64,000 bases of DNA from a bacterium. Its GTDB lineage: Bacteria; Omnitrophota; Gorgyraeia; Zapsychrales; Zapsychraceae. Positions 597 to 32,423 of this stretch are shown here, one piece after another (the stretch's first letter is position 1; every line of letters begins with the position of its first letter). The translations under genes and the position numbers were made by a program. Below the pieces are notes generated by a model that was given only the letters and a program-made list of their open reading frames with translations, searched no databases and had not been told where the DNA came from. The DNA lies in contig JAUIER010000005.1 of assembly GCA_030429765.1 (NCBI GenBank), positions 3,175 to 67,174 on the forward strand. The letters run 5' to 3'.

Positions 597-641
597 TGGT
601 TGCGGGGGCCAGATTTGAACTGACGACCTTCAGGTTATGAG
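597..641 (-). repeat. 45-bp perfect copy of the 3' portion of tRNA-Met (identical to 32347..32391); candidate att site (attR-type relic) of a tRNA-integrated island.
   Basis: tggttgcgggggccagatttgaactgacgaccttcaggttatgag is identical at both loci. Downstream bases diverge (ggctaggc here versus cctgacgag in the tRNA). Confidence 0.85.
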
Positions 642-759
642 GCTAGGCTAAAACCTTTGCTTGTGTTAGCTGATTTTTATTAATGTTAAGCGTTGAAAGG
701 GTTTAAGAAAAAGTACGTTTGCTGGTGTTAGGTGTTCTTAGGCTGTTATCGCACCTGTT

Positions 760-777
760 TGTTACACATACGTTATC
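760..777. repeat. 18-bp subterminal repeat tgttacacatacgttatc (second copy at 32261..32278); candidate recombinase arm-type site. GTTATCGCA also occurs at 745..753.
   Basis: Exact 18-bp match found by eye near both island ends, same orientation, each 66-116 bp inside the tRNA-derived core repeat. Confidence 0.6.
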
Positions 778-854
778 ACATATATAAATCTACTATTAGG
801 TATATCTGATAAACGATTTGGATATTTGATGACCTCCACGTTCAATTCACAATT

Positions 855-2312
855 TTATTGATCTCCCGTCACAATCGTCGGCGTCAGAAAGATAACGATC
901 TCTGAAACTCGGTCAAAATTGCGGGTATTACGAAATAGAACGCCCACGACCGGGATGTCGCCGATTACCGGCACCTGGCTGACCGCGTCGATCTGTTCTT
1001 CTTTGATCAAACCGCCAATCACAAGCGTGGTCTGATCTTTGACCATCACCTTGGTCTGGGCCTCGGATGTATCGACCACCGGAATGATATTATTGTTGCT
1101 GGTGACGAGATTACGGACCACTGAACTCACCTCCGGCCGGACGGACATGGTGATAAACCGATCTTTGTGAATGGTGGGTGTGACGTAGAGTTTGACGCCG
1201 ACATCGATAAACTTGACATCTTCGGCCGTGGTAGCCGGACCCGACGCGGTGGTGGTTGTTGTTGTGGTGACATACGGTTCCTGAGATCCAACGAGAATAC
1301 GCGCTTCCTCTCCATCGATTGCGGTTATGCTTGGACTCGATAATATCCGGCTGTCTCCGACGGTTTCCAGGGCCTCCAACAGAAACGAATAATCATCATC
1401 CTGCAACGTACCGATACTGATCGTTCCCTTCTTTTCATTGATCCCCAGAATATCAAAATCACCGCCCAGCGTCAGATTGTGCCGATCCCGGACAATTCCT
1501 TGCCAATCGACACCGAGCTTGTATTCATCATCAAGCGTCACCTGAACGATCTTGGCCTCAATCAAGACCTCCTGCTGCTGCGTATCAAAGGCCTTGATCA
1601 TGCGCTCGATCTCCTGCAGCTTCTGAAACGTGTCCGAGACAATCATACGCTTGGCCTTGCGGTTGAATCGAAGGGTTCCGACACCCGAAGTCAGCACCTG
1701 CTCAATATCCGCCGCCAGCGACTCGATATTGGCATACGACACATCAAACACCCGTGTCTGCAGCGCCACATCAATCTTGTCAATGACCTTAATCATCTGC
1801 TGGATCTTCAGCGGGGTATCGATCAGGATCAACGTCCGTGATTTTTCATCGGGAATGATCTGTCCTACCTCGCTCTTGATCATGGACAGCGTCGATTCCA
1901 GCTTCTTGGGCTCGGCAAAGGCGATATCAACCACCTGCGTCGCCATCACCGTTTCACCAAATTTCCGGCCGTAACGGATCTCATAATCCTTGTCCGTCAT
2001 CACTGTCATCAACCGCTCCGACTTATCGATCACCCATCCGTAGGTCTGAACGATGATATCCAGCGCTTCCAACGGTTCAATGTTCTTGAGATAAATGGAC
2101 ACCTTGCCGCGTACATTCGGTGATTTGACAATATTCACCCCCGACTCATTGGACAGGTATTTGAGGACATCACCGACCTCCATCTCCTTGAGGTCCAATA
2201 CATCAATAGTGACGGGAACGGTATCTACGGCAGAACGTGAACTCTGTGCCCATACCGCGGATGGCAAGAATGTTAGGCAAATCAAAATGATGAGAGGCTT
2301 CAAGGCTGTCAT
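855..2312 (-). CDS. Secretin (type IV pilus PilQ or type II secretion GspD family) with signal peptide. ATG at 2312 preferred over the TTG at 2333 used in the ORF track.
   Basis: Secretin-like C-terminal region (LIEAKIVQV...GGLIKEE...VPVIGDIPVVGVLF...IVIFLTPTIV) and N-terminal secretin_N-like modules. Confidence 0.8.
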   Translation of the reverse strand: MTALKPLIILICLTFLPSAVWAQSSRSAVDTVPVTIDVLDLKEMEVGDVLKYLSNESGVNIVKSPNVRGKVSIYLKNIEPLEALDIIVQTYGWVIDKSERLMTVMTDKDYEIRYGRKFGETVMATQVVDIAFAEPKKLESTLSMIKSEVGQIIPDEKSRTLILIDTPLKIQQMIKVIDKIDVALQTRVFDVSYANIESLAADIEQVLTSGVGTLRFNRKAKRMIVSDTFQKLQEIERMIKAFDTQQQEVLIEAKIVQVTLDDEYKLGVDWQGIVRDRHNLTLGGDFDILGINEKKGTISIGTLQDDDYSFLLEALETVGDSRILSSPSITAIDGEEARILVGSQEPYVTTTTTTTASGPATTAEDVKFIDVGVKLYVTPTIHKDRFITMSVRPEVSSVVRNLVTSNNNIIPVVDTSEAQTKVMVKDQTTLVIGGLIKEEQIDAVSQVPVIGDIPVVGVLFRNTRNFDRVSEIVIFLTPTIVTGDQ

Positions 2313-2339
2313 AACACAATTGAGGTTGTACAAATAAAT

Positions 2340-2930
2340 CTAGAGTTCCAGATCGACGAGTGTTTCGTTAAACTCAAACTGCACCCGGTCGGGATGAATC
2401 GCGAGCACTTTGGCGCCGTGAATCCCGTCGCCGGTCTTCAAAAAAAGCGTTTCATGCGTCGATAAATCTTTGACCACCGCCAGCGACGGCGACTTGATGA
2501 TAATCCCCGACAGCGTAATAAATTGATCTAGCGTCTTGACCGGTTCAGCGACTGCCTCGGACCGGTTAACCCGGCGCGCGTCCAGCTCATCGCGATAGTT
2601 TACAAAGATATTCCGGCGGCGAACCGGCTGTAAATACTCCGACACGTCCCGAACCGGTGATGATGCGACATCGAGTTGAGCGTCCGCGATCGATTGAGCC
2701 CGAATATCAAAATCACTCAATCGCTGCTGTTGCTGAAGGCTCAACCAGACAAACTGCACGCCGACACCGATCAACAGCATCAAAATCATCCAGCGAAGCG
2801 ACAGGTTCACACGCTTCATCCATTGCAGCAAACGGTTCCGTTGCCGCATCTGCTGCTGATCCTTCAGCATTTGATCATGCGAATAGTCCGTCGTGACGGC
2901 AGGAATCGTGATGCGGCTTTTCTGGATCAT
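2340..2930 (-). CDS. Secretin-associated inner-membrane protein (PilP/GspC-like); single TM helix then periplasmic domain. Start moved to internal ATG 2930, which has a GGAGAA RBS.
   Basis: Position immediately upstream of the secretin on the same strand; TM segment WMILMLLIGVGVQFVWLSL; C-terminal beta-rich domain. Weak family assignment. Confidence 0.4.
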   Translation of the reverse strand: MIQKSRITIPAVTTDYSHDQMLKDQQQMRQRNRLLQWMKRVNLSLRWMILMLLIGVGVQFVWLSLQQQQRLSDFDIRAQSIADAQLDVASSPVRDVSEYLQPVRRRNIFVNYRDELDARRVNRSEAVAEPVKTLDQFITLSGIIIKSPSLAVVKDLSTHETLFLKTGDGIHGAKVLAIHPDRVQFEFNETLVDLEL

Positions 2931-32000: not shown

Positions 32001-32094
32001 GACTATGTACATGTAGATCCCACTTCCGCCAAATGGAACCTACCTGGTTTGTTGTATCATTCCGAAGTTCTGTTTTGATGATATTACCCTCCAA
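29035..32094 (-). CDS. PHP-domain phosphoesterase fused to an SMC/RecN/SbcC-like ABC ATPase with a long coiled-coil insert (1019 aa); candidate defence protein; TTG start.
   Basis: PHP motifs WDLHVHS, VIGINDY, ECRM, NFHIIF, GSDSHD. Walker A GNKGEGKS. ~300-aa coiled coil. ABC signature LSPGERG. Walker B IIVDQPE. H-loop MVTHHP. Confidence 0.7.
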   Translation of the reverse strand: MEGNIIKTELRNDTTNQVGSIWRKWDLHVHSPASSGFKGDWNQFIIQLGNADCDVIGINDYFSVTGYKEVLKRLNDPDEASKGNQAYRDALEKLRIKILLPVVECRMNNIVISKHSQKSGTRINFHIIFDNSLSPDDIENAIKSFKVNDEKISSHYNDSIYLLNDAAVDYFATINELKSEKTLRNSFLIWLPYDEYGGADEVDPVNDRLFKQRLINNANIIGSSNKNQIDFFLWKNQKFTEQQYKDWFGKKLPCIKGSDSHDSNDEIGQLKDSNSKPVNKFCWIKADPTFEGLKQICNEPEDRINICDTPDKIKTVTNNSTNYLSHINISKVGTISGAREWFDNDIPLNFDMVAIIGNKGEGKSALTDIMATACNTHCLPKYFSFLTSKRFREKNGKFASNFIAEVTWADGSKDSIQLDQDPDLNKIEKVKYIPQTYLDSICTETSSDEFQKELRSIIFSHIPEDNRLGHNSLEDLIHYHSEELEQQLDSFRSQISRINTEIIGVEIQLTPETLTKLLSEKKELEQKISAHKKGKPKEVSKPSEPTKEEQKKIDAVNKQIKAVQTQIELLENRIESAVNYKKAVTERIALARKLRTKLEGFEKSFEQLKDDTADDFRILSLNIPSTISLTLNLSSLENKIGRLSRQEIKAGEYLSESGTRSLVMKKQQLAENAEKLQETLDAPNKKYQAYLKDLREWEKILNKIEGDKKISGTLKYVEEQIRAIKNDLPNKLKELEIKRSEQARNLFAQIEAIRQIYNQLFKPVQDLIANNALIKDELGLSFDSSIMIANFISVFFGNYISQGKTGTFMGKVEGSDRLERLIEGVDFGKIDEVIVFAEEITKSLKQNLRDEKQPFMRVEDQLRKDVLVQGVYDFIWSFDYLKPQYALKLDDKYLTQLSPGERGTLLLIFYLLVDKSEYPIIVDQPEENLDSQTVYTLLKPVIKDVKRRRQIIMVTHHPNIAVACDAEQIIYCEIDRKNSYKVNYLGGAIESPQMNSYVVDVLEGTRPAFDNRDAKYQNR

Positions 32095-32260
32095 TTTCTC
32101 TTAAACAAAAAAACCTCCGCCAACGCTGGCAAAGGTCTTAATTTTGATCGTATAGCGAATTTTTCCGTAAGATTTAACAACGCTAGCGTATGTAGATATT
32201 AGAGCAAATACGCCACCCAATGTCAATCGTTCGAAATCACTGACATTTCTCTACCATAGA

Positions 32261-32278
32261 TGTTACACATACGTTATC
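32261..32278. repeat. Second copy of the 18-bp subterminal repeat tgttacacatacgttatc (see 760..777).
   Basis: Exact match read in the sequence. Confidence 0.6.
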
Positions 32279-32302
32279 GCAACCCTATTTTGGATGGAAC
32301 TT

Positions 32303-32347
32303 AAAAAAATAACCCCCTGTAAGTGCTTGACCTACAAGGGGTTATTT
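32303..32347 (-). terminator. Rho-independent terminator immediately downstream of tRNA-Met (arms aaataacccc / ggggttattt, followed on the minus strand by a T7 run).
   Basis: Inverted repeat plus poly-A at 32303..32309 on the plus strand. Confidence 0.55.
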
Positions 32348-32423
32348 GGTTGCGGGGGCCAGATTTGAACTGACGACCTTCAGGTTATGAGCCTGACGAG
32401 CTACCGGGCTGCTCCACCCCGCT
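32347..32423 (-). tRNA. tRNA-Met (anticodon CAT), probably initiator tRNA-fMet (A1:A72 mismatch; near-identical to the E. coli initiator tRNA from memory).
   Basis: Reverse complement AGCGGGGTGGAGCAGCCCGGTAGCTCGTCAGGCTCATAACCTGAAGGTCGTCAGTTCAAATCTGGCCCCCGCAACCA folds as a cloverleaf with CTCATAA anticodon loop and encoded CCA. Confidence 0.85.

Follow-up and report, generated by a model that had tools for sequence, protein, structure and literature searches.

Here we describe a genomic island in a bacterium of the Omnitrophota (GenBank assembly GCA_030429765.1, contig JAUIER010000005.1, positions 3,175 to 67,174 of the forward strand), a stretch of 64,000 nucleotides that we call the window and to which all coordinates refer. 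Positions 642-32345 of the window are an island bounded by attachment (att) repeats at an initiator-type tRNA-Met gene. Comparison with related loci suggests a composite, inserted by a widespread tyrosine-integrase family and probably made up of two tandem elements. The part adjoining the tRNA, element B (17835-32345, ~14.5 kb), would be an AT-rich unit with xis, int and primase-helicase genes, a TrlF/Ppl-like gene with a nuclease-like partner, and a cargo slot; the distal part, element A (642-17789, ~17.1 kb), would be an integrase-less segment with a secretin trio, an RHS toxin with small downstream open reading frames (ORFs), and a giant FN3 protein.

The island ends and the integrase family

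The features that define the ends and the recombinase are:

596-641, minus strand: distal att core, on the attR side; repeats the tRNA-Met 3' end perfectly over 46 bp
642-854, minus strand: P arm, with GATAACGTATGTGTAACA at 760-777 and the first TAAC 134 nt from the core
21938-23143, minus strand: tyrosine integrase (PF00589, 1e-28)
32110-32345, minus strand: P' arm, with the arm-type site at 32261-32278 and the first TAAC 71 nt past the tRNA end
32347-32423, minus strand: intact initiator-type tRNA-Met, containing the proximal att core 32346-32391

An earlier reading of this DNA from its letters alone (the original prediction) had proposed that the 3' end of the tRNA recurs as a 45-bp perfect direct repeat. 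ARAGORN and Rfam both call an intact tRNA-Met(CAT) at 32347-32423 on the minus strand, and 45 nt of its 3' end do recur exactly at 597-641; only the length needs correcting, as the perfect direct repeat is 46 bp (596-641 = 32346-32391), with 48/49 identity when stretched to 596-644. Its start is the first anticodon-loop base, and it ends one base past CCA. The bases past 641 are unrelated to the tRNA 5' half, which the left copy lacks, and neither ARAGORN nor Rfam calls a second tRNA gene there. The region bounded by the repeats (642-32345) is 31.7 kb long, and three marks of a tRNA-integrated island are present in it: a repeat of the tRNA 3' part, an intact tRNA at one end and an intact tyrosine recombinase. 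In terms of junctions, attL consists of the tRNA 5' half, the core and ATAACCCCTTGTAGG, and attR of GGTTTTAGCCTAGCC, the core and TAGAAAAGGACAATCC; the predicted attB would join the tRNA 5' half and core to TAGAAAAGG, and the predicted attP would read GGTTTTAGCCTAGCC, core, ATAACCCCTTG.

The tRNA has a CAU anticodon, A11:U24 and a 1:72 mismatch, A1xA72, where all Omnitrophota relatives (L002-L008) have C1 (C1xA72). Its anticodon stem has two G:C pairs only (G30:C40 and G31:C39) after A29:U41, an arrangement common to all these relatives. Bacterial initiator tRNAs are marked by the CAU anticodon, the 1:72 mismatch, A11:U24 and three consecutive anticodon-stem G:C pairs, as comparison with E. 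coli tRNA-fMet brings out. The nearest genomes are Candidatus Omnitrophota metagenome-assembled genomes (MAGs) whose enolases share 74-79% identity with the one encoded beside the tRNA; these MAGs keep the order enolase-ftsB-tRNA-Met. Within ~9 kb downstream of the tRNA, those MAGs have no homologs of the island genes; one of them (L003) has an unrelated integrase.

The tyrosine integrase claimed for the island is there, and it looks intact: the catalytic residues R212, H322, R325, H348 and Y358 are invariant in an alignment of 27 homologs. The protein is most similar to XerA/XerC/XerD-type models in NCBIfam and belongs to a family distinct from the integrases of P4-like satellites and phage-inducible chromosomal islands (PICIs). 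Homologs are plentiful (3772 at E <= 1e-20), and a scan of metagenome contigs with the alignment of 27 homologs returned 80 loci at 42-57% identity, most of them with a xis homolog directly upstream of int and many of them sitting at tRNA-Met, tRNA-Arg or tRNA-Thr genes. Two layouts recur. In type A, which is that of the window, the tRNA and int are co-directional and int stands at the element end far from the tRNA, reading away from it; the settings are eno-ftsB-tRNA-Met in seven loci, and also elongator-type tRNA-Met and tRNA-Arg(CCT). In type B the two genes converge, the int 3' end lying ~0.05-0.25 kb from the tRNA-Met 3' end in most loci. Relative to int, the att region of this one integrase family can thus face either way (L143-L167 type B, L089-L137 type A). 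The ~9 kb between integrase and tRNA, which the original prediction had measured rightly and read as an anomaly, is normal, since int in type A lies at the tRNA-far end.

Relatives with both repeats (L089, L116, L120, L125, L154, L158) have att cores of 42-47 nt from tRNA positions 30-35 and span 8.1-11.5 kb, against 31.7 kb here. The distal att core of L116 (11271-11375) seems split, its nt 1-18 and 26-45 lying ~63 extra bases apart. The two closest integrase relatives, L172 (~3330-3400) and L173 (~2220-2250), share a conserved palindrome, CCACACTTAAGTGTGG / CCACACTAATGAGTGG, in a promoter-like stretch just past int and its arm-like site, where it may be a cargo-slot operator; inspection of the matching region of the window by eye, with no pattern search run, showed no counterpart.

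Inside the repeats lies a second pair of sites. The 18-mer TGTTACACATACGTTATC, which had been described as an 18-bp subterminal repeat in the same orientation at each end, occurs exactly twice in the window (760-777 and 32261-32278) and 0 times in 100 shuffles, even when up to 2 mismatches are allowed. The window arm site GATAACGTATGTGTAACA has the spacing TAAC-N7-TAAC; in relatives the arm motif comes as two tandem copies at 11-bp spacing, GTG[CA]TA[AG]CA-N2-GTG[CA]TA[AG]CAAA. Placement is shared as well. Every repeat-bounded relative has a short direct repeat ~67-83 nt inside its tRNA-proximal end (69 in the window), which recurs to end ~112-118 nt ahead of the distal core (118 in the window); the first TA[AG]C falls 71-77 nt past the tRNA end in 9/10 type-A loci (window, 71) and 131-134 nt ahead of the distal core in 5/5 loci having one (window, 134). 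With TA[AG]C-N7-TA[AG]C at both family distances, the window has the family att layout as defined here from the relatives; in its P arm TAACA stands five times on the sense strand within 219 bp, as against a background rate of 0.7 per kb. Because the 18-mers stand at family-conserved distances, they are, to judge from conservation, probably integrase arm-binding sites, and since the arm-site geometry matches that of the relatives, the island ends appear to be a canonical, intact attL/attR pair for the encoded integrase family. This family would recombine at the tRNA stretch from the anticodon loop to the 3' end.

Repeat, arm sites and integrase therefore all agree on a tRNA-anchored island bounded by att repeats, as originally proposed. 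That no integration took place, the left copy being a duplicated tRNA-Met relic or an assembly artefact across the 46-bp repeat and the DNA between the copies ordinary chromosome, we find scarcely credible. It could draw on the core-like composition of 642-4900, on a relative in which a rhodanese-T2SC-secretin trio stands in another context with no att, and on short-k public contigs that break at the repeat edges. The left copy, however, has no tRNA 5' half and begins at the anticodon loop, as does the repeat in every repeat-bounded relative; arm sites stand on both sides at family-specific distances; 17.45-32.35 kb is strongly atypical in composition; and relatives retain eno-ftsB-tRNA-Met without the island genes downstream. 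The contigs in question, L001 and L082 (Logan, run ERR3428548), end at window positions 32393 and 596, as expected for a k=31 assembly meeting the repeat, and speak neither for nor against excision.

A putative internal att remnant and the two-element reading

A motif search turned up a third TAAC-N7-TAAC site, GATAACGTTTTGATAACA, at 17705-17722, on the same strand as the outer arm sites. It agrees with the window 18-mer at 14/18 positions and, at 16/17, with the site adjoining a 68%-identical integrase in L172. A core fragment, TAACCTAAAGGTCG (17817-17830), matches att core nt 5-18 with 13/14 identity, and the gap between it and the arm-like site is 67 nt, against a canonical 68; only 1/20,000 shuffles of the upstream 200 nt reaches the core-fragment match in register. 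We therefore list the pair as one feature:

17705-17834, minus strand: putative vestigial internal att, an arm-like site with an in-register core fragment

This feature coincides with the compositional break near 17.45 kb. Its anticodon-loop part agrees at 3/7 positions and its last 28 nt at 5/28; since neither stretch is conserved, the internal att is probably inactive. Short-word BLAST and repeat finding returned no third full att copy, the remnant coming from the motif search only.

On the two-element reading, the 17.7-kb site would be what remains of an att between tandem elements, decayed notably in the crossover region while the outer attL/attR stayed perfect. The features expected when an element accretes beside a cis-mobilisable element (CIME) are both found here, namely a degenerate att between the parts and one part without recombination genes. 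By an established route to tandems, a resident element decays into a CIME that has no integrase, and an incoming element then accretes at its att (PMC5704250); in the tycheposons successive integrations at one tRNA push older elements inward (bioRxiv 10.1101/2020.12.28.424599). Should the island still be mobile, its Int and Xis would be expected to excise all 31.7 kb as one circle, which the primase-helicase would replicate. The original prediction had wavered between accreted elements and a satellite or PICI-like element with large cargo; the internal att at a compositional break speaks for the former, and the latter finds no packaging or capsid-hijacking gene to support it.

Size points the same way as the internal site. 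The island is ~3x the size of its repeat-bounded relatives, and what makes it larger is the DNA from int to the distal arm, 21 kb here. In relatives this cargo slot measures 0.01-1 kb (L116, L120, L125, L158) or 4.2 kb (L089); its contents are a HicAB-like pair in L120 and, in L089, a restriction-modification system of 4.2 kb. A single element of the family, its slot between int and distal arm grown to ~21 kb by stepwise gene capture and its internal att-like site a chance match or a regulatory integrase-binding site, would explain the same layout, and we hold it to be unlikely. Such a slot does vary at exactly this position in relatives; the outer 18-mers are identical to each other while the internal site differs at 4/18 positions; and L172 and L173 carry an arm-like site right past int, followed by cargo. 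It leaves unexplained, however, why a core fragment and the arm-like site should stand in register and at canonical spacing, and why the site should fall on a sharp compositional break, and it asks for a slot five times the largest known in relatives.

Several observations weigh against two tandem elements and have to be set beside this. At ~131-134 nt ahead of the vestigial core, where element B should have its P-arm site, none was found. The internal core can be recognised over just 14 nt, after which identity drops sharply to 5/28; such an edge looks more like a junction than uniform decay. The window holds two sites that differ from the 18-mer at four positions, which makes the arm-like site weak when taken alone, and slots of up to 4.2 kb in relatives make a single large-slot element conceivable. 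The left flank within the window is only 596 bp long, and no independent strain was found, the window being matched by three public contigs, all 100% identical to it. A pattern search of JGI metagenomes for the empty site, in the form of the left-flank hairpin joined to the tRNA 5' half, gave no match, and the predicted attP (circular) junction had no match in IMG/VR. IMG/VR likewise held no copies of the 18-mer, and exact-protein look-ups of ftsB, secretin, rhodanese and integrase for a longer left flank returned short, 100%-identical Logan contigs only.

Among the relatives, accretion may also be visible. In L089 (12486-12661) a further P'-type tandem arm site, GCTAGCACTGTGCTAGCAAAA, lies 93 nt past the distal repeat of the 9.1-kb element, which suggests that in this other Omnitrophota genome, too, an element at tRNA-fMet has a tandem neighbour. 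In L105 (4264-11155) two co-directional xis-int modules stand 5.5 kb apart, with no recognisable repeat between them.

Gene content, composition and flanks

Apart from the integrase, the genes of the putative element B are:

17984-19219, plus strand: PAS protein, in the cargo slot beyond the integrase
19568-20311, plus strand: Bac_transf sugar transferase, in the same slot
20378-21550, plus strand: PEP-CTERM protein, in the same slot
21556-21930, minus strand: 124-aa ORF matching phrog_11043 (phage family, function unassigned), 3.7e-6
23149-23343, minus strand: excisionase-family HTH protein of 64 aa (TIGR01764, 28.0 against a cut-off of 28.8; also phrog_66)
23499-25718, minus strand: P4-family primase/helicase (TIGR01613, 224 bits against a cut-off of 108.7)
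25718-25921, minus strand: 67-aa ORF with no assignment
26108-26869 and 26898-27443, minus strand: two unknown ORFs
27511-27753, plus strand: XRE regulator, in a defence-type cargo block
27755-29014, minus strand: 419-aa PD-(D/E)XK-like protein (weak similarity)
29035-32094, minus strand: TrlF-family PHP + AAA ATPase (NF045780, 628.8 bits against a cut-off of 350; Ppl, 88 bits)

The slot beyond the integrase (17984-21550, ~4 kb) is comparable to that of L089. Of the replication and excision genes named in the original prediction, the P4-type primase-helicase is borne out by its TIGR01613 score, and the AlpA-like excisionase in part: the protein is excisionase-like, of the HTH_17 kind, with the AlpA label no more than putative. 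The anti-phage protein Ppl is among the next-best matches of the 29035-32094 product. Ppl of E. coli has been described as an exonuclease of the PHP type, equipped with an NTPase domain, whose target is the ends of phage DNA (PMC12904381), which would make the TrlF gene plausibly defence cargo.

This gene set invites the view that element B, or the whole island, is a P4-like or PICI-like phage satellite, induced by a helper and packaged in helper capsids. A P4-family primase together with an integrase, the pairing that marks P4-like satellites, is present; so are the excisionase-type HTH, the XRE regulator and defence cargo adjoining att; conjugation genes are absent; and the 124-aa ORF past int has its match in phage family phrog_11043. 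Nevertheless we regard this view as quite improbable. Scans of ORFs against Pfam, PHROGs and NCBIfam gave no homolog of psu, sid, delta, terS, capsid, portal or packaging-interference genes. For P4-like helper control, Psu, Sid and Delta were lacking among the ORFs of 21.5-32.1 kb in all three databases, and for PICI packaging, terS, ppi, cpm and capsid genes went undetected in the ORF scans. In IMG/VR, moreover, the integrase has no close relative (best match, 31% identity) and the primase no relative at all, and IMG/VR holds neither the predicted attP junction nor an 18-mer match. Nor does the island look like an integrative and conjugative element (ICE) or an integrative and mobilisable element (IME), as no relaxase or type IV secretion system domain was found in window ORFs of at least 90 aa.

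The genes of the putative element A are:

855-2312, minus strand: secretin of the type II secretion system (T2SS)/type IV pilus kind
2340-2930, minus strand: T2SS-C-like protein
3058-3789, minus strand: rhodanese/cyt-b5 protein
3809-4864, minus strand: DUF1574 protein
5093-7386, minus strand: three small AT-rich ORFs without a family match, downstream of the RHS gene
7418-11509, minus strand: RHS/DUF6531 protein
11542-12774, minus strand: two small ORFs
12755-13630, minus strand: PD40 propeller protein
13631-17404, minus strand: 1257-aa FN3/FlgD-Ig protein

No int, xis or primase pseudogene was found in 642-17789, where matches were at chance level only. The ORFs at 5093-7386 occupy the usual place of immunity genes or orphan toxin tips. 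A truncated secretin C-terminus was considered for 15 residues past the secretin stop and dismissed, the alignment tail being spurious. Secretin homologs at 50-58% identity abound in Omnitrophota; the closest one, in L168 (69% identity), is likewise part of a rhodanese / T2SS-C-like / secretin trio, which there is followed by a DEAD-box helicase and has no att site. Since the homologs are so common and the trio recurs in L168, the trio looks to be DNA typical of the lineage.

The sharp GC variation described originally is confirmed by GC and tetranucleotide profiles. The stretch 17.45-32.35 kb has 35-39% GC and a tetranucleotide correlation with the core of only 0.26-0.42, and is foreign-like; 642-4900 has 47.6% GC and a core-like profile (r = 0.85); 4.9-7.4 kb is foreign-like, and 7.4-17.4 kb intermediate. 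Because the distal repeat and arm site are perfect, the core-like composition of the distal end of element A more likely reflects the source of the DNA than long residence.

On the left flank, the original prediction had seen the original tRNA terminator together with palindromic iterons.

511-596, minus strand: left-flank hairpins, of which 559-596 has a perfect 17-bp stem and 511-557 is flanked by an A-tract and a T-tract

The hairpin at 559-596 directly follows the displaced tRNA 3' copy, the flank folds strongly (z = -8.9), and both hairpins lie within a 103-bp tandem duplication. A consensus terminator scan did not flag them, and Rfam reports nothing there. The two hairpins are probably the original tRNA terminator region; the supposed iterons fold as tandem terminator-like hairpins. 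At the other end, the element supplies a terminator hairpin to the tRNA at 32307-32347, with a second terminator-like site at 32110-32139, and a promoter-like TTGAGA-16-TATAAT lies by tRNA-Met at 32515-32542. The spacer between ftsB and the tRNA (32477-32604) holds inverted repeats rich in TTCGAA/ATTTCGAA around this promoter-like sequence.

Further along the window, 46500-50260 is AT-rich (39% GC, tetranucleotide r = 0.46), carries small ORFs and lies directly downstream of tRNA-Phe (50264-50339, minus strand). This tRNA was considered as a second island anchor and set aside, as no tRNA-derived repeat was found. Long hairpins flanked by A-tracts and T-tracts, with a TTGAAG-type loop, occur both past tRNA-Phe (50165-50240) and past the displaced tRNA-Met copy (356-557), and may be a family of bidirectional terminator-like repeats.

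Significance and comparison with known systems

Gene movement in Omnitrophota, which are uncultured and often have very small cells, is little known. The island provides a clean example with an intact attL/attR pair, making it a candidate for excision assays, and the sharply conserved arm-core-arm geometry of this widespread and uncharacterised integrase family offers a rule for locating the ends of related elements in metagenomes. What has probably been fused here is a defence-carrying replicative element with a secretin/RHS module. The biology is of the standard tRNA-island kind, so that the value of the case is descriptive and no new principle emerges. A broader proposal, which we put forward tentatively and think possible rather than probable, is that the integrase/xis/arm-site architecture defines a large, undescribed family of small, self-replicating, cargo-shuttling elements, tycheposon-like, in Omnitrophota and other uncultured bacteria, which would build tRNA islands by accretion; the intact outer att pair would then let the integrase move, as a passenger, a 17-kb secretion/toxin-delivery module that comes in part from the host lineage.

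Of the known systems, P4-like satellites and PICIs share with the island an integrase, a small HTH excisionase/regulator, a P4-family primase-helicase, tRNA integration and an anti-phage-type gene (TrlF/Ppl-like) adjoining the att site. They differ in their psu, sid, delta, terS and capsid-redirection genes, none of which was detected among the window ORFs, and in size, the window composite being three times the usual satellite.

ICESt1 and its CIME in Streptococcus (PMC5704250) offer another parallel. There too an integrase-bearing element and an integrase-less segment lie at one tRNA 3' end, with an att-derived site between the parts and outer att sites that could excise the whole composite. 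Unlike that system, the window has no conjugation or mobilisation genes, its host is an uncultured member of the Omnitrophota, and its internal att is degenerate, so that excision of either part alone is unlikely.

At the level of the ends, the island differs from a lambda-type attP in its sites, TAAC motifs repeated in tandem at 11-bp spacing and oriented alike on the two arms, with binding suggested by conservation. It has in common with lambda a core flanked on both arms by repeated short sites at fixed distances and a xis gene adjacent, and the additional N-terminal region of the window integrase would suit arm binding.

The tycheposons of Prochlorococcus (bioRxiv 10.1101/2020.12.28.424599) belong to another host phylum and use another tRNA target; membership among them is set by hallmark genes and integrase clade, so that the likeness here is architectural only, and their activity has been shown, whereas the window element is known from sequence alone. 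In architecture the two agree in a tyrosine recombinase that targets a tRNA and is accompanied by xis, a small primase/helicase module, kb-scale niche or defence cargo and flanking partial tRNAs, and in tycheposons, as is suggested here, repeated integration at one tRNA builds islands that hold decayed older elements.

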